Part shown: positions 33,552 through 62,580 of the stretch, in pieces
How the letters are laid out: each line of letters begins with the position of its first letter
Position numbering within the stretch: position 1 is the first letter of the stretch
Source: Lophium mytilinum
Lineage: Eukaryota
Reading direction: 5' to 3'
Length of the DNA stretch: 64,000 nucleotides
Assembly: GCA_010093605.1 (NCBI GenBank)
Contig: MU004184.1
Coordinates: forward strand, 1,126,801-1,190,800
Position numbers and translations under genes: made by a program
Notes under the pieces: generated by a model
The model's database searches: none
The model's input: the letters and a program-made list of their open reading frames with translations, nothing else
Told to the model about the DNA's origin: nothing

Positions 33552-35099
33552 ATGGCCTCGAAACAAGCACCGGCAGAGAACATGCTATGGGGCGGCCGCT
33601 TCACCCGTATGTTTCAACTCCAATTAACGTTGAAAGAGTCATTTCGACATCCTGTCTCAAGCTTCACCCCGCGCAGTACTGACGCTTCGCAGAGGGCCTT
33701 GACCCATTGATGGTCAAATACAACACTTCCCTACCCTACGATAAGATATTCTGGTCGCAAGACATTCGGGGCAGCATTGCTTTTGCGCGCGCCAATCTCG
33801 CTGCTGGCATTCTCACCTCCGGCGAGTTCGCCGCAATCGAAAAGGGGTTTGGGCAGATCGCCGAAGAATGGAGGTCGGGGAAGTTCGAGGAGAAAGAGAA
33901 TGACGAGGACATCCATACTGCAAACGAGCGGAGGCTGAGCGAGCTGCTGGGCAAAGACGTCGGCGGCAAGCTTCACACGGGCAGGAGCCGGAACGAGCAG
34001 ATCGCTACCGATATGAGGCTATGGTTGAGGGATGAGTTGAGGACTCTGGAAGGCTACCTAATGGACCTTATCAAGGTCGCGGTCAGCAGGTCAGAAAAGG
34101 AGATCGATGTCCTGGTAAGAGCCAGCAGCTCCAACATAATCATGAAGAAACCTAGTAGAATCAATCCTAACAACTCCCCAGATGCCCGGCTACACCCACC
34201 TCCAAAAAGCCCAGCCAGTCCGCTGGTCCCACTGGCTCCTCTCCCACGCAACCGCCTTCACCTCCGACCTCGAGCGCCTGCGCGAAGTCATCTCCCGCGT
34301 CAACCGCTCGCCCCTAGGCTGCGGCGCGCTAGCCGGCAACCCCTTCAAGATCGACCGCGAAGCCATGGCCAAAGAGCTCGGCTTCGAAGGCCTCCTCTAC
34401 AACTCCATGAACGCCGTCGCCGACCGCGAATTCGTGCTCGAAACCATGCAGTGGGGCTCCAGCTTCATGCTCAAGATTTCCCGCTGGGCGGAAGACCTAA
34501 TCATCTACTCCTCCCTAGAGTTCGGCTTCGTGCGCCTCGCGGACACGTATTCTACTGGTTCGTCGCTCATGCCGCAAAAGAAGAACGCAGACTCGCTCGA
34601 GCTGCTTCGCGGCAAATCTGGACGCGCGTTTGGGCAGATGGCGGGTCTGTACTGCACTATCAAGGGCCTGCCGACGACCTACAACAAGGACTTGCAGGAG
34701 TCGGTTGAGCCGATGCTCGATCATATCAAGACGGTTGGCGATAGTATGCAGATCGCGACAGGCGTGCTGTCGACGCTGTCGATCCACCCGGATAAGATGC
34801 TCGCGGCGCTTGCGCCTGAGATGCTGGCGACTGAGTTCGCGGATTACCTTGTTCGCAAGGGCGTTCCGTTCCGCGAGGGGCATCACATCTCCGGCCGTGT
34901 GGTGCAGCTCGCGGAAGAGAACAGCGTGCCCATGGATAAGCTGACGGTTGAGCAGCTGCAGGGTATAGATGCGAGATTCGATGAGGATGTCGTATCGTGT
35001 CTGGATTACGAGCGCGCGGTTGAGCTGAAGGACGCGACTGGTGGCACGAGCAAGAGCGCTGTTAGGGAGCAGATTGAGGTCCTCAAGGGGATATTGTAG
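33552..35099 (+). CDS. ARG4: Argininosuccinate lyase
   Basis: [45 protein letters not shown] signature; two introns. Confidence 0.97.
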
Positions 35100-35179
35100 G
35101 TTTTTTCTCATATATGATTCATGAGGACAGGGTGGAGTATGGTCGTGTTGTGATTTGGTAAAAGTGTTTAGATAGGTTA

Positions 35180-35559
35180 CAGTGACAGGCCACAAGTTTG
35201 GGCACACTGAGTCGCCACTGCCAGGAGCCCCCCCCAAAGATTTAGAAGATCTATCGGCGATGTCGGTCTTTAAATAGTGCAGATTAGACTGCCTCTTAAC
35301 TAAATAGCTACTTTGCAGTTAGGCTACCCCCTACAGTGGTATTAAGTAAGCAATATTAGAGCCTAGCAGTAATAGATCCACGTTTTCTAGGATTTCAAAG
35401 AACTAAAGGCAATGTTGAGTTTTAAGTAGTGCAGGTTAGACAGCCTCTTAACTATGTAGCTCCTTAGCAGCCAGGCTACCCCCTACAGTGGTGTCGAGTG
35501 AGCAATACTAAAGCCAATCAGTGACAGTTAGGTGTGCCCAGACTTGTGGCCTAGTACTG
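35180..35559. mobile_element. MITE, Tc1/impala-like (TA TSD), 380 bp, with internal direct repeat
   Basis: 28-bp TIRs CAGTGACAGGCCACAAGTTTGGGCACAC and revcomp CAGTACTAGGCCACAAGTCTGGGCACAC (24/28 identical), TA on both flanks. ~95-bp internal direct repeat at ~35269-35363 and ~35421-35515. Confidence 0.88.
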
Positions 35560-35716
35560 TACGTATTTAATGGTTGAACGCACTTCATACCCACTTTGTT
35601 CGATTCAGAGTCACCGAGTGAGCCTGGGGACTTCAGACAGCGGTAAACAAGAGTCACGAAGCAATGCATCAATCACAGAAAGCGAAGATGAGGCGGATGT
35701 GTTGTATTGATTGAGG

Positions 35717-36178
35717 TTATCGACTAGTGCTATGAGGATATGTATCAGGAGGGGGTATTCGTGAATAAACGAAAGACGACCGAAGCAAAGAAAACCGCTG
35801 TCCACCACTGCTCGACAAGAATGTGCTTAGGGAGATGAAGAAGTGAGTGAAAGTCGACGCCGATCCTGGAGCTGATGCTCTCCAAGCCCTTGCTGGTGCT
35901 GATGCAGTCGGAGGTGTAGCGCCCTGAGACATTGGCCTCATAACCATCGGCTCCCAGTTGCTCCGGTACTGTTCAGTCACCACCTCACTTTTCGACCCGG
36001 GCTCTCGGAGTTCGATTTCCTTCTCTTCTTGTATGATCATGCAGCAAGTACAGATCAAGGACTTGAGACAGTCGTAGAACACGTTCCCCTTAAGATTGTA
36101 TCGATGCCGGATTTCCGTTTCTTGCACGCATGGAAGGATCCATGGGCATCGCAACAGGGTACAGCATTGCGCGATGCA
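35717..36178 (-). pseudogene. PLAC8 (Cys-rich, DUF614) gene, 3' half
   Basis: After acceptor GCTAAC...CAG: CIAQCC...ETEIRHRYNLKGNVFYDCLKSLICTCCMIIQEEKE, the PLAC8 C-terminal motif. Confidence 0.85.
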
Positions 36179-36210
36179 CTGATCGAAGTTAGCTCCATAA
36201 TCGCGATAGG

Positions 36211-36461
36211 AGATGGTGTTTTGGCGGGGATATACGGAAAGGGATCGGTGAGTTTCTTGAAGAGTGATGGTAAGAAGGAGATATATACACCTGTCTGCCA
36301 CTTCTTGGAGTGCTTTAACAAGTTTCCAGATAGCCCAAAACTAATGGCAATCATCTCATTTGTATCTCTTAAAATGTATCGAAGCACCACAAACAGCGGC
36401 AGACAGTTGTATAAGAGGCAGAATGCGGGTTGAGTGTGCCACCTTTTTCATACCACGTGTG
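36211..36461 (+). mobile_element. Transib-like MITE, body and right TIR (split by inversion)
   Basis: Internal sequence similar to the 53280-53469 copy (CACCTGTCTG.CACT.CTTG.AGTGCTT.AACAAGTTTC). Right TIR ends ...CACGTGTG and is followed by GCAGG. Confidence 0.8.
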
Positions 36462-36640
36462 GCAGGCACCTTCTCAACGACGAGATCATGGCTTCTAGTT
36501 TCCACACACATCACATGAAAGAGCGATGTCACCCCTGTCACTTTGTTTATTTAGTCTCCACCGCCTGCGTCTTCTCGACCTTCTCTCTCACATTCCACTC
36601 CGCAGCATTGTCAACCAGCAACACTAAGCTTCCATCCATT

Positions 36641-36698
36641 ACTCTCATCCACTACTCCGCTCTCATCCACTACTCCACTCTCATCCACTACTCCGCTC
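36641..36698. repeat. 18-bp tandem repeat x3 in the PLAC8 5' region
   Basis: (RCTCTCATCCACTACTCC)3. Confidence 0.9.
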
Positions 36699-36809
36699 TC
36701 GTCTCCCTCGCCGTTTCACTGTCGTCGTGTTCTTGTCTCGTTCTCGGCGTTGCTCGACCACTCTCTGGACTTCACATCCCACCGCTTGCATCGTTTCTTT
36801 GCATCCATC

Positions 36810-37127
36810 ATGTCGACCCCCGCCTATCCTCAGACCGCCGGCAGTCCCTCGCAAGACATCGACGTTGAGAATCAGCGTAGAGACAACGTCAACGAATCTG
36901 GATCAGCACCGGCAGCTCCAGCTGGCGAGAAGCAGGACCGCCTGGTCTCGCTCTCTGACTGCTTTGATCCGCCGGGATTATGTAAGTTTGATCACTCGTT
37001 GACCTTATCATGCTCAAGCGGAACTACTGCTGACAAGTGTCTCTGCCCATGTTATATCTTTGGGAAGACGTACCATCGACTGAAGAACAACGGCGACATG
37101 AGCACATTTAGACCGGCCAATGGCCCG
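36810..37127 (+). pseudogene. PLAC8 gene, 5' half
   Basis: MSTPAYP...SLSDCFDPPGLC...CLCPCYIFGKTYHRL...ANGP followed by donor GTACAT at 37128. Confidence 0.85.
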
Positions 37128-37156
37128 GTACATGATCGCTCTACACAGATCTTGAT

Positions 37157-37186
37157 GAGTGTGCCCACTTTTTAATGCCCAGCGTG
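37157..37186 (-). mobile_element. Transib-like MITE, displaced left TIR
   Basis: Revcomp CACGCTGGGCATTAAAAAGTGGGCACACTC. Outer flank CCTGC is the revcomp of GCAGG, matching the TSD at 36462-36466. Confidence 0.85.
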
Positions 37187-37467
37187 CCTGCTAGGTGGGA
37201 AGAAGTCACGCTTGCCATTTCTGTGCAAGCTTCAAGCTCAGCGCCTCATCATAATATGAAAACTCTGGGTGCCGGCTCGGTGGTCATTTCTATCAGCCTA
37301 GCATTCAGGGACCGGCCTAGGTCGGGTGGTGCTGAAATTTGTGCAGACCACATTGGAAGTAGTTAATATCGAATCCGACCTTTATAGGCGGTAGAGTCTA
37401 AACACTGGAAGGGACTCGGAGGGAGGTCCATTCAGTTCTAGGAAGGAGAAGTACCATGACGTGAAGG

Positions 37468-37698
37468 CACGCGGGGCATAAGAAAGGTGGCACTCTTATT
37501 CCAATCAACCCTCGATAGATGTGTACGCGTGTATGCCACTGTTCGGGTTGCCCTAATGCATTTCAGAAACCAAAACGAGAGAGAAGCTCTTCACTCTAGG
37601 CCATCTGAAAACTCGTTAGGGCAACCCAAGCAGTGGCATACACGCGTACACGAGATAGAGTGCTTGAAGGGTGTGCCACTTGTTTCATGCCCAGCGTG
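37468..37698. mobile_element. Transib-like MITE (foldback), 231 bp, TSD GAAGG
   Basis: TIRs CACGCGGGGCATAAGAAAGGTGGCAC and revcomp CACGCTGGGCATGAAACAAGTGGCACAC. GAAGG on both flanks; inner ~35-bp inverted repeat. Confidence 0.88.
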
Positions 37699-38734
37699 GA
37701 AGGGACGCTGGGCCACTGCGAAACGCGCTGTCTACCAATCAATCCAAAGAGGAGGAGCGTGGCCAAGATGTTATGAGGAGCAATGCTCATGACCTGGACG
37801 ATCTTAGTAAGGAGAAGGCGGAAAGGAGAGAGAAAGAGGGACGCTGGGAGCGTCACAGTTGGGCTTGGCTCTAATTCTCACCACCCACTGACGTTCCATG
37901 GAATCAAGAAGCATAACAAGAAGGATTAGAATGAGCAATCAATCCGGATACCAGAACAAGCGAAAAGGAAACTCGTAGATAAAAGTTCATTTATTGATTA
38001 TATCCTCCTATTGGCATAACCTACATTCACGACATCCTCCGAATTCAATTCTGGTAATTCAATATCATCGTTTCAGAAAGGGTAAACCAACCCAACCCAA
38101 ATCCCCCATCATGCTTCCCGGCGAAAAAGATCCAGGAGCTCAAAGACAAACCTTAAATCCATTCCAGTAACAGCCTAGGGGGGAATCTTAATAAAAAGGA
38201 CAAATAAGACTGAGCGCTCACACGCAGCATGCTCCCCAAAAATGACACGCAAAATGAACCAATGTGACCGGAATAAAGACGAAAGCCTCCGAAGGCGAAG
38301 GACATCGCTGAAGCGAATGTAGTGGTAACGTGACTGCAGGCCAAAATGCAATCACTAATCATGTTGCAGAATGAAGCTCATCATCAAAATGCTAGGAAAA
38401 ATATCGAGATCGGTGGGGGCGTATTACTTTGTACAAGGTCTCCGAGAATGGAGTGATGATAGATGAAACCACGCAAGCACGGTTGAGATCGCCCGTGGAG
38501 CCAGTCCCGAGCTAAGAGGGTATTATCGAATAGAAATTTGTTGGAGTGTAGCTCGGAGCTGAACGTAGCGTGTGTCGAAGATCTCGATTGGGCATCTTCG
38601 CTGCCATCACTTAGAAGACATGATGATATAACTTCTTCTCTGAAAAGGCCGTGATAGAGACGTATGGGGACGAGTCAGACGTTTTAGCTGAGAATGACAT
38701 ATCCGTGGAGCTGGTGCTGGTGCTAAGATCCTAT

Positions 38735-49649: not shown

Positions 49650-52303
<2,654 letters not shown>

Positions 52304-53279: not shown

Positions 53280-53469
53280 CACGCTGGGCACAAAAAGGTA
53301 GCACACTCAGCAAGCGTCCTGTCTCGTGCGGTCGGGTATGCACCTGTCTGTCACTGCTTGAAGTGCTTCAACAAGTTTCAACACAGTCGAATGCTGAGAC
53401 TTTCCATCTTGTTGAGTATACACCAGACAGAATGCTCGGTAAGTGTGCCCTTTCATCATGCTCGGTGTG
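53280..53469. mobile_element. Transib-like MITE, 190 bp, TSD CGCGA
   Basis: Left TIR CACGCTGGGCACAAAAAGGTAGCACAC; degenerate right TIR ending GTGTG; CGCGA at 53275-53279 and 53470-53474. Confidence 0.85.
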
Positions 53470-57960: not shown

Positions 57961-58529
57961 TATAGCGCGTACTATATACTTAAAAATACGCTACCTCTAA
58001 CTAGCATTATAATAAAGACTCTCGGAATAATATCTATAAATTATTTCTTTTTCTTCTTTAATTACTCTTACTCTATAAATATATTTTTCTAATCTCTACC
58101 TATAAAAGTAGGGTGCTAACTAAAGCTATTAACGCCGTTAGCCTATAACTCTTCTATTAGTGCGCTATAGACCCTAATCTTTATACTAATATTTACTAGT
58201 TAACTAAAACCTTTATAAGCCGGCGTAAAGAAACGCTCTATTAAGTCTTAAAAAGAAAATATAATAAAGAAGGTTAGAAATCTTAAGCTATCTATATTAA
58301 GAATATTACTTATATAGTACTAAAGAATATTCTACTCCCTAAAGAGATAATTTTTTAGTTATAGAGAGAAGAATAAAAGCCTAAGAAACTATAAATTTTC
58401 TTAGGCTCTAATTAGCAACCTTTACCTTTTAAAGTTAAGAAGCGTAACCTAAATTCTATTATCTTACTTACGCGGCACTTACTTTTTATAGATAAGAATA
58501 AGGATAATAATAATATAGAGTGGGGCACG

Positions 58530-59600
58530 TATAAAGAACTTAAATCTAGTACTTTTATAAAGGTTTTCTATATAACTTATTCTAAGATACTAGGTTTAAG
58601 CTATACTATAAAGATTCTAAATAAACGCCCTAAAAGAATTAATACAGCTATACTAGAGGCTTTCGCCTCTATCTTATTAAAGTACTTACCCTATATTATT
58701 AAAATTATTAATTTATAGATTAGAAGTAGATTATTTAATCTTACTACACTTATAGTACTTATGCTGCCCTTAGTAAATAGTAGGCATCTAGGTAATTAAC
58801 TACGCACGCTTTTAGTTAGTAGGGGGAGTGCTAATATACTACTTTAGATTAAGACTTAAATCTTTTAATAGATATATTATTTAGTAAGAATATTAGATAA
58901 AATTTATAGAACTAGCTATATATATAGAGATATAAAACTAGAAAATATTTTTATCTATAATAACTCTATACTCTATACTAATTTTAGTTTTTATAAATTT
59001 TAAACGCATTTAATAGACCTAAAGTAGATATCTAGCGGGTCTACCGTAGAAATAGTACTAGTCCCGCCTATAGACGGCTAGAAATTAGAGAACTATAATT
59101 ATCTATATAATTATAGTTTAGAGCGGCTACTCTAAGATAATAAACTTTTAAAATATAAACCTCTAATACGGGTAGAACCTAGAGAGACGCTAAATAAGGT
59201 TATAGAAATAGGTAAAATTAGTAGTAATATTTTTAATCTTAGATAGATTATCTATAAGATACTCTAGGTAGTAACTTCTACTTTAGTTTATAGGAGAAAG
59301 CTACTATATCAGCTAATAGTAAAGATTTTTATATAGGATAGATAGTAATAATTCCTTACACTAATTAATAAAATCTTAAGATTATTACCGCCTTCTAATA
59401 TAACTCTAGAAGTTTTAAAAGAGCCTGCGCGTTATACTAAGCTTACTTAGAAGTTACTAAGTATTATTATCTATAATATAGTTATTTCTACTACCGCTAA
59501 TTAGAAGCCTTTAGGGAAAGTTACTAAGCTTATTAAAGATATAATAGACTTATATAAGATAGCTCTAGATACTTATTATACTAGAGATAGTAGACTAGTT
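58530..59600 (+). pseudogene. RIP-mutated Ser/Thr protein kinase relic
   Basis: Reversing C>T/G>A in one frame gives ELGSGAF.KV (58536), YA.K, HRDIKPENIFI (58923) and LYTDFG (58971); SDIF.LG follows downstream. Ends approximate. Confidence 0.85.
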
Positions 59601-60699
59601 TATAAGCCCTAGTAGACTTAAAGAGTAGTCTAAGTTATAATTATAGTTATATATCTTTTTTAAATTTATAATTAATCTATTATATTCTATCTATCGCCGT
59701 AGCTATTAGCTAGCCTTACGAGCACGTTCTTTAAGCACGTTCTTATTAGCGTATTAATTAATCTAGATTAAAGCTACTATATAGCCTCTTTAACTTATAG
59801 ATTATATTACTTATTTAAAACTTTATATATAAGCTAATAGCTAGTAGATATAATATAATTTATAACTTTTTAATAATTTCTAAGTAATCTATCTATTTAC
59901 CGTCTAATAGTAGCTACTATATCTAACGCCTATAAGTATAAGATATAGTTAATATAGAATTAATAGTTTTGCATTTTTTATATTTCTAGTCGCCTTTTAC
60001 TATAATAACTACTATAAAGAATAGTATTTACGCTTTCTATATAATTATTTATAGGTATAGTTAGTTTCTAATAGTAGTATTAAAACTTAAATAGCTTTTA
60101 GTAGGTCTCTTAGTTATTAAACTTATTAGTATATATTCTAAGAGAACTTCTTAGCTACCTACCTTATTATTTAGCGGATTAGATCTACCTATTATTACTA
60201 CTAGTACTTAGTTTAGTAAATTAGCAGCTTCGCGTTTATAGAAGTAAGAGTCTAGGTACTTAAATAGATAGGTATAAAAGCCTAATATAATTAAGAGAGA
60301 GATTTTTTTAGATAGAAATTAGAGGGAAGTAGCTTAATCTATATATATATATTATTAGGCGCCCTAGATTAATAGCTTATTCTAGAAGCAGGTTTAGGTA
60401 TAGCCCTAGTCTAACCGCGTAGATGCTAAGTATAGCAGCGTGCATATAGATATTAAAGAAATAAACTATTAAGTATAGCCCTTAAACTTAATAGAATAAA
60501 AAGTAATACTTAAATTATCTAAATTATACCTATTTAATAAAATTAAAGTTATTTTATATTTACTATAGGTGTCCCTAGTTCTTTCTTAGGTCTTTAAAGT
60601 ATAAAATAGCTTAATTTAAAGCGTCTTATATATATAAATACTATTAAATCCCCCTCTAAGTTAATTTACTATAACTAAGACTTCCCTATTGCATTTAAT

Positions 60700-62580
60700 T
60701 TCCTTAATTATTTACTAAGGGACAGGCTATAGTCTAATAAGAATACCCTCTATTTTAAATCCTTATATTAGCAGTTTCTAATTTAAGTTAAACTTAAAAT
60801 TTGCGACTATTTAGGCTTCTTTTCTCTAAAGAAGTATACTATTACGGCTAAACGCCTTAGTTAGACTTATTTATTTACCTTAAATATAGAAATAATACTA
60901 TTTAGCGTAGCTTTAATATATATATATATATAGGTAAGATTTATTCCCTATATTATCTCTATATAGGTTAGTTATTATAATAAGTTAGTAGGCTCTAATA
61001 GTTAGTTTAGAAAATAATGCTATAACTTTAGTTTCTATAATCTATATAGAAGTAGACTCTCTATCTATAACTAGAGCGGTAAAAAAATAGATACAAGAAT
61101 ACCGCTGCGCAGTATACCTTAATAAAAACTTATTCCGGCCTACCCGCCTTATTAATATTAGAAGGTTGGCTAATTAACGTTATATTATAATAATTAAGAT
61201 AAATAGAATATTAATTCTAGAATATACTTATCTCTCTTATTACTAGAGAGCCTCTTAACTAATTATAAACTTAATTACCCGCAAATTATCTCTAGAAGAA
61301 TAAAAGATTAAGATATATAAGCTACTATAGATAATATAAAACTCTATTTATATATTATATTAGTTTTAGTATTAATATATATAGGTTAATAGCCTCTATA
61401 TATTCTAAGATAATATTATAGATAAAGAGAAAGAAATTATTTTAATATCTTAAATCTATAAAAGTTCCGCCCTTATAATATATATATTAACGGCTTAGTT
61501 ATATAAGAAAGGTTTTCTTTAACTGCGGCTTAAATATAGTAAATTTTAGCTCTAGATTAGTATACCTAGTAATAAAGTTAGTAGAGTCTACCTAGATAGA
61601 ATTAAGTAGTTTTTTCTACCCGCTAAAGAGGTATTAGGTATATAAGCCTAGGCATTATAAGAAAGGTTACTCTCGCCCCGTTTACTAGAGTATAGTTAGA
61701 GAACTGTAAGGTAGACTTACTTCTATACTAAGAGGTATAATAGATACTAGCCTCTACTAGTAGAAATTACTTAAGAAGATAAGAGCCTAATTATAGTAAA
61801 TTATAACCTTTTTAGCTATCTTAACCTAATAGGGCTACGGCGCATTATTTAATATAGAAAAGAGCTTTTTATCTACTAGATTAAAGTTATTAAATAGTAT
61901 ACCCGTTAGAATCTTATATTTTCTAATAATAGACTTACTGCTATTAGTATAATTACAGTAGAAGTTTAAGAAAGGACTAGAGTACCTTATCTTATAGAAT
62001 TATAAGATTATAAAAAGCTTCTATTTCTACTATTATAGAGAAATATATTGCCTCTTTAGAAACTTCTTTTATAACTATTAATATTGCGTGCACCTTTATA
62101 GTTATAGGCTAGTATTAATAGTCTAGTATTAATAAATTATAGTAAAGAGTTAGTATTATTATTTAGAATTATAGATAGAGAAGTCTCTAGTAGCTTTAGT
62201 ATATTAGTATAAGGGTTAATTACTATTAAAGGCCGTATTTAAAGAGATCTATAGTAGACTAATAGATTTAATTAGTAGAAATATTAACTAATATTAGAGG
62301 ATTTAACTTAAGTTACTTTAACTAGGCACGATCTAGAAATTAATATTTAGCCTAACTATATTAATAAGATATTTACTATTAAAGATAATATAATTATAGT
62401 ATTTCCGGGTTTAGGTTTAGTATTTTTAGCTATTAGAGTGGCAAACTAGAACTATAATCTCGTTCGCGGGTTAGTTCTAGCGAGATAGGATAAGAAGTAT
62501 TATAGAAGGGTGGCCTTTTTCCAATTATATAGTAAGTAGAGTGCTACTATAATAGTAGACTAGCGAGTAGAAGCTATATA
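60700..62580 (+). pseudogene. RIP-mutated HET-domain gene relic
   Basis: One frame de-RIPs to PTRLIDI, YACLSHCWG (61223), WVDSLCIFQD (61382), RAWALQERLLSPRLL (61643), RAPSWSWAS (62087) and GLVL...YRRV (62501). Ends approximate. Confidence 0.9.

Follow-up and report, generated by a model that had tools for sequence, protein, structure and literature searches.

A PLAC8 gene of Lophium mytilinum split, and most likely inactivated, by an 858-bp inversion that also divides a miniature transposable element

Intrachromosomal inversions are frequent in Dothideomycetes and show an excess of simple repeats near their breakpoints, according to the excerpted account of these genomes (PMC3516569). Here we analyse a window of 64,000 nucleotides from Lophium mytilinum (contig MU004184.1 of assembly GCA_010093605.1, positions 1,126,801 to 1,190,800 of the forward strand; all coordinates below count from the first letter of this window), in which a gene of the PLAC8 family lies as two halves on opposite strands and an adjacent miniature inverted-repeat transposable element (MITE), here called E1, is divided as well. 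We attribute this arrangement to a real, conservative two-break inversion that most likely inactivated the gene, a reading to which we assign a probability of roughly 0.8. The event resembles the dothideomycete inversions, as they are excerpted from that study (PMC3516569), in being intrachromosomal, in having its nearest matches in dothideomycetes and in carrying short alternating tracts at both breaks. It differs from the gene-block inversions in being far smaller (858 bp), in breaking an intron and the palindrome of a MITE, and in destroying a gene rather than reordering genes. Small inversions that break a gene are a known phenomenon; this locus is a new instance, from a group of fungi whose genomes rearrange mainly by inversion, and ordinary for a dothideomycete-like genome.

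The affected gene and the affected transposon each have described relatives. Proteins with the PLAC8/DUF614 domain, such as fungal FCR1, plant PCR and mammalian Onzin, are small and have a cysteine-rich domain, and the Lophium gene is like them in both respects and collinear with annotated fungal PLAC8; it departs from the family, as sketched in the excerpted source, in lying in two opposite-strand pieces and in having a 15-residue insertion in its Cys motif (PMC6488628). Cadmium tolerance and other roles are attributed in the same excerpts to members of the family that are only distant (PMC6488628). The transposon and its relatives in the window, at 190-231 nt, resemble MITEs with internal palindromes in size, in terminal inverted repeats (TIRs) of roughly 30-40 nt, in their many copies and in their 5-bp duplications. 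Inversions also arise by alternative (aberrant) transposition of Ac/Ds, which uses transposon termini. The present inversion is similar to the extent that one of its breakpoints falls in a transposon, but its junctions lie 43 nt inside E1, with both termini and the duplications untouched. Because the two new junctions fall in the interior of the MITE, away from its termini, a transposase cut is unlikely; a first-pass annotation of the window had suggested an association with a transposase as a possibility.

Two open frames make up the PLAC8 gene. The 5' half (36810-37127, plus strand) opens with ATG and is coding up to a donor, GTACAT, giving 106 codons on read-through. The 3' half (35717-36178, minus strand) is preceded by a branch-point-like GCTAAC (36193-36188) and an acceptor CAG (36181-36179), and runs for 153 codons from 36178 to 35720, followed by the stop TAA at 35719-35717. 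The two halves are divergent, with their broken ends ~950 nt apart, so they do not constitute one continuous transcription unit. Against the Pfam profile PF04749 (cut-off 34.4 bits), the N-terminal half matches positions 9-38 with a score under the cut-off (16.6 bits, E 0.015) and the C-terminal half positions 51-101 with one that exceeds it (42.0 bits, E 1.9e-10). The same complementarity is seen with the nearest library protein, P0001, a PLAC8-domain protein of 219 amino acids to which the halves are only 42-45% identical: the N-terminal half matches residues 1-88 (E 4e-25) and the C-terminal half residues 91-197 (E 1e-18). P0001 was also the best of the 242 proteins found at E <= 0.001 by an exhaustive phmmer search with the C-terminal half, and the two closest relatives are proteins of dothideomycetes. 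In an alignment of seven rows (the two halves and five relatives), the halves tile the PLAC8 family end to end with zero overlap. Because the profile positions and the P0001 residues are complementary and the halves tile in the alignment, the two frames are the halves of a single PLAC8 gene, whose rejoined protein would have 259 codons. The first-pass annotation had placed both halves at these positions and strands and had read them as one continuous domain, and on both counts it was right.

No second PLAC8 copy was found in the 64-kb window by tblastn, and the C-terminal half had no match as a protein in metagenome scans. Word-indexed protein searches returned no match for the C-terminal half (at near lengths) or the N-terminal half (at longer lengths), a weak negative given the 242 relatives that phmmer found. 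An extension of the C-terminal half to 36259 in tblastn was rejected as drift: the segment 36179-36340 could not be aligned directly with P0001 or with the N-terminal half, and the exon starts at 36178.

The 5' half contains a further oddity, an intron-like GT..AG segment of 56 nt (36982-37037, plus strand) that is out of phase. Splicing it out leads to a stop after 24 further codons. Reading through it keeps the frame, and codons 36990-37034 then insert 15 residues into the N-terminal Cys motif before CPC, residues that all five relatives lack. The spacing of this motif before CPC is therefore not intact either way, being disturbed by the insertion or by the frameshift. The observation that the first intron looks damaged and that only its retention keeps the frame had been made before and stands; the oddity is independent of the inversion, however, and does not date it.

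The second record of the event is the MITE. The body and right TIR of E1 occupy 36286-36461 (plus strand, outer end at 36461) and include most of an internal palindrome (36284-36413) that folds as DNA at -22.2 kcal/mol (z -3.0); a copy of the target-site duplication, GCAGG, follows at 36462-36466. The other terminal arm is detached, lying 683 nt from the body at 37144-37186 (plus strand, outer end at 37186) in direct rather than inverted orientation with respect to its partner, and is followed at 37187-37191 by the reverse complement of GCAGG. Aligned over 43 positions, the two E1 arms agree at 31. An intact sister element, E2 (37468-37698, plus strand), consists of a TIR, a palindrome (37521-37651) and a second TIR, between GAAGG at 37463-37467 and at 37699-37703. 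Together with c53 (53280-53469, intact, with the direct duplication CGCGA) and c51 (~51368-51502), E1 and E2 make four copies in the window that share the architecture of TIR, internal palindrome and TIR. E2 and c53 have inverted termini beginning CACGC or CACAC and perfect, direct 5-bp duplications; unlike these direct pairs, the GCAGG copies of E1 stand on opposite strands. All three elements that have both ends (E2, c53 and E1) show a perfect 5-bp target duplication. A pairing of the detached E1 arm (37155-37189) with 37465-37499 was also considered and rejected, since the true partner of the latter is 37663-37698, with which it shares the GAAGG duplication.

With its TIRs, fixed 5-bp target duplication, small size, dispersed copies and absence of coding capacity, this is a MITE family. 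The open reading frame (ORF) over E2 has no Pfam match, the summed contig depth over the MITE is several-fold above that of its flanks, and an Rfam search over 35000-38000 gave only mir-49 on the MITE hairpin, far below threshold (22.8 bits against 60, E 0.23), which we take as chance. A 5-bp target duplication and CAC termini are quoted as hallmarks of Transib in the excerpts of PMC1131882, and the family has both. By inspection, however, its TIRs do not have the layout of heptamer, 12/23 spacer and nonamer given there: an A-run beginning at about position 13 would leave a spacer of ~5 (PMC1131882). Because the TIR layout is mismatched, we do not assign the family to Transib; nor was a transposase seen. 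Transib elements are absent from fungi in the excerpt of one survey (PMC5751038) and are recorded in fungi from soybean rust only in that of another (PMC1131882).

A single flip of the segment between the two junctions restores the collinearity of PLAC8, the inverted pair of E1 TIRs and the direct GCAGG duplication, which supports a real inversion. That the same flip reunites the MITE and puts GCAGG at both of its ends had been noticed in the first-pass annotation, and the orientation of the TIRs and the duplications agree with it. Its overall verdict, an inversion that most likely inactivated the gene, is also supported, one flip mending both the split gene and the interrupted MITE.

The position of the breaks is another matter. 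An inversion of ~940 bp had been proposed, with breaks at 36210|36211 and 37152|37153, a rebuilt intron of 57 nt, a 4-bp inverted microhomology (AGAT/ATCT) at the joints and one break ~5 bp inside a TIR. Of this the inversion itself is upheld by both gene and MITE, and the details are replaced. In a MAFFT alignment of six rows, E2, c51 and c53 have no counterpart of 36211-36285; E1 aligns straight through against the other copies when 37144 or 37145 is joined to 36286, whereas the earlier version requires an insertion of 75 nt. Further contigs carry the same internal joint: in at least two, at single-copy-like depth (161/175 and 142/116 in the DNA runs X1/X2, described below), 36286 is connected with 37144 or 37145 of the opposite strand, in one case across an internal gap of 76 nt; they represent further MITE copies that have exactly this internal join. 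In addition, the 99 nt at 36187-36285 have a second genomic copy (98% identical, with two differences including T>C at 36222) that keeps them contiguous, an unexpected finding had the inversion created a junction at 36210|36211.

As the MITE copies lack 36211-36285 and contigs join 36286 to 37144/5, we place the breaks at 36285|36286 and 37143|37144, with a margin of ±2 nt owing to a shared TA. The earlier positions were thus off by 75 nt and by 8-9 nt. The inverted piece is 36286-37143, or 858 bp, and comprises the MITE body, the upstream region and the 5' coding half; the rebuilt intron, assembled from the 5' stub with the donor (37128-37143, plus strand) and the 3' part with branch point and acceptor (36179-36285, minus strand), measures ~123 nt. 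The break in the MITE lies 43 nt from its terminus and 2 nt inside the palindrome, at its foot. As for microhomology, the breakpoint zones share 16 inverted 4-mers against 28 ± 6.5 in shuffled sequences, so AGAT/ATCT is a chance match and TA is the most that the junctions may have shared. Both inferred ancestral breaks fall in alternating purine/pyrimidine (R/Y) tracts: that of the MITE is 9 nt long and has an 8-nt palindromic core, that of the intron is 7 nt long; tracts of at least 7 nt take up 4.2% of positions in the window. The ancestral state is readable to ±2 nt here without an outgroup.

Contigs from three public runs that carry the stretch bear on the arrangement itself. X1 and X2 are DNA runs from one sample. 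X3 belongs to a different study and is RNA-like in behaviour, being the only run with spliced GT..AG joints: those of 86 nt (33607-33692) and 67 nt (34114-34180) in the neighbouring lyase gene, both within a 1535-nt contig. X3 covers that gene well. The evidence consists of k=31 graph contigs, which drop rare variants, and the reading given here covers 15 of their 69 joints and 23 of their 1255 pieces. The right junction is contained without a difference in a 1413-nt contig of X1 and X2 (36231-37643) and in a 619-nt contig of X3 (37001-37619). The 3' half is covered by contigs 35533-36216 and 35705-36216, which end 6 nt beyond the left junction first proposed. At the locus itself, the contigs of all three runs show the window's orientation only, among the joints listed. 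The left-side pattern fits a 99-nt stretch present in two copies, with a single-letter bubble collapsed in the k=31 graph. That the 3' half adjoins the inverted piece follows from the window's assembly and from the reciprocity of the two junctions.

Several points weigh against the inversion as we read it, or against its finer claims. Three overlapping pieces are all that bridges the left junction, by way of the two-copy stretch 36187-36285, none of the contigs listed spans from the 3' exon to the MITE body, and the gap 36216-36231 is covered solely by a contig that reads C at 36222, where the window has T; the contigs alone cannot prove that the 3' half adjoins the inverted piece. X1 and X2 may be the source data of the window's assembly, and X3 may be the same strain (0 differences over the pieces shown), so that fixation in the species does not follow. 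As contigs are the only evidence here, a minor fraction of cells may carry the other orientation. At the intron, consensus donors have G at position 5, which GTACAT does not, and the rebuilt ~123 nt is longer than either of the two introns observed in the lyase gene next to it (67 and 86 nt). The two half-frames remain open, and the only sign of decay is the anomalous 15-residue insertion. Finally, the argument from R/Y tracts was formed after the sites had been seen and on one event, which makes it a lead only.

The alternative that fares best keeps the same inversion and adds filler, with 36187-36285 copied from another locus during repair and most of the original intron lost. The second copy of this stretch, 98% identical, ends exactly at the breakpoint 36285 and begins 8 nt from the acceptor, and 123 nt is long for an intron of this genome on the two examples seen; both are as a captured filler would have it. 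GCTAAC, however, lies within the stretch and is spaced from the CAG acceptor as is usual for a branch point, which argues for the intron's own 3' end, and we regard filler as unlikely. The stretch may be a small repeat, a copy of the PLAC8 intron or filler captured at the junction. Its second copy also occurs in X3, at a depth of 14.8. It matched no known RNA family in the Rfam search over 35000-38000 and, folded as RNA on both strands, gave z ~0 and showed no structured-RNA signal; a 38-nt piece of the two-copy repeat had no match in metagenome scans.

Still less probable, and indeed quite improbable in our view, is an assembly artefact, in which the gene would be intact in the genome and the piece would have been flipped or wrongly joined during assembly. 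The left side gives this idea what footing it has: the junction sits at the edge of the 99-nt repeat, no listed contig runs from unique sequence to unique sequence across it, the contig over 36222 differs from the window, and MITEs crowd the interval. The right junction, where the intron stub adjoins the inner end of the TIR, is by contrast present with 0 differences in X1, X2 and X3, from two studies and at single-copy-like depth. Bins 36515-36916 have the depth of the 1413-nt contig only, so a second, intact 5' half is not apparent. No inverted repeat of k-mer length, of a kind that would allow a flip in the assembly graph, was found flanking the piece, and a mis-join would be unlikely to yield junctions that are exactly reciprocal for gene and MITE.

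Far less likely again is a programmed switch that turns the gene on and off by inverting its promoter and 5' exons, as the first-pass annotation had considered. The upstream region and the 5' exons do lie on the flipped piece, and a second flip would give back an open gene. Yet no inverted repeats straddle 36285/36286 and 37143/37144, where matches do not exceed 2-4 nt and shared 4-mers are at chance level. A Pfam scan of the seven large ORFs at 28-43 kb gave Lyase_1/ASL_C2, RhoGAP and PH domains and no recombinase domain; the neighbours of the gene are an argininosuccinate lyase and a RhoGAP gene, not a recombinase. For these two reasons site-specific inversion is unlikely. The opposite-strand joints among those listed have either a 76-nt gap or sides of 43-45 nt, as expected of other MITE copies and not of a back-flipped locus. 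Moreover, with the E1 TIRs now in direct repeat, recombination between them would cause loss of the 5' half, not its re-inversion.

Under the two-break inversion, the consequences for the gene are plain from its present layout. The 5' half now runs past its donor into the MITE arm, reaching a stop after 15 more codons, and has lost the 3' exon; the 3' half is left without its own promoter, start or upstream region. The PLAC8 gene is most likely inactivated. The region upstream of the start codon (36467-36809, plus strand), presumed to hold the promoter and 5' untranslated region, lies inside the inverted piece. It contains, at 36641-36703, three tandem copies of an 18-nt unit that are 93-100% alike. 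In X3, a 545-nt contig at 36301-36845 (depth 5.2, 0 differences) spans the body of the MITE and all of this upstream region and reaches 36 nt into the PLAC8 frame, which suggests low-level transcription through the presumed promoter. X3 has zero cover over 35711-36112 and a depth of 3-5 over the 5' half and upstream region, a contrast that we do not take as evidence either way.

A last idea, also raised in the first-pass annotation, that the halves are transcribed divergently and trans-spliced into a full PLAC8 mRNA, is hardly credible: although each half keeps an intact-looking donor or acceptor, the single X3 contig over the donor (37001-37619, depth 4.4) is unspliced and collinear with the DNA, the 3' half has no evident promoter, the joint from 37127 to 36178 is absent among the 15 of 69 joints listed, and we know of no established nuclear mRNA trans-splicing in filamentous ascomycetes.

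A history consistent with the inversion can be outlined. The ancestral locus would have held a single PLAC8 gene on the minus strand, between the argininosuccinate lyase and RhoGAP genes, with a 220-nt MITE and its 5-bp target duplication ~350 nt upstream of the start codon. Two double-strand breaks would then have occurred, one in the last intron of PLAC8 and the other at the foot of the MITE palindrome, 43 nt from the element's terminus, and the ends would have been rejoined the wrong way round. On the MITE side this would have happened without detectable loss, and microhomology would have amounted at most to the 2-nt palindrome TA, a pattern that suggests end joining. Since both sites lie in short alternating R/Y tracts, the likeliest trigger would be a locally fragile DNA structure at both of them, and not a transposase or a recombinase. 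It is doubtful that the palindromes of MITEs and short R/Y tracts act more generally as fragile sites whose breaks are rejoined conservatively, with intergenic DNA rich in MITEs as the source of the sub-kilobase inversions behind mesosynteny, the shuffled gene order of Dothideomycetes. Were that so, this locus would capture one of these inversions to the base pair, noticed because it chanced to hit an intron.

The locus documents gene loss by micro-inversion at base-pair resolution, with two independent markers (the gene, and the transposon with its duplication) recording one event. What was probably lost is one non-essential PLAC8 gene, and no new mechanism is indicated. Annotation pipelines, which at this locus would report two fragments or nothing, could use the case as ground truth, and it could serve in the study of how inversions originate in fungi in which intrachromosomal inversions are frequent. 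It also carries a caution, as neat microhomologies and 'ideal' intron lengths mislead when breakpoints are set by eye.

The window has a GC content of ~52%, resembling a filamentous-ascomycete chromosome arm, and its genes have introns. To the left of the PLAC8 locus, the argininosuccinate lyase gene (plus strand) extends to ~35.1 kb, and to the right, the RhoGAP/PH gene (minus strand) starts from ~38.7 kb. Just beyond the 3' half, at 35178-35561, lies a distinct MITE-like element with 43-nt inverted arms separated by 298 nt and an internal direct repeat of 137 nt (35239-35375 and 35391-35527). Its summed contig depth is 20-50x that of its flanks, with many variant contigs, indicating a high-copy family. 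Farther away, a block at 58001-62000 has a GC content of 26%, against ~52% elsewhere, and resembles an AT-rich island degraded in its repeats in the manner of repeat-induced point mutation.

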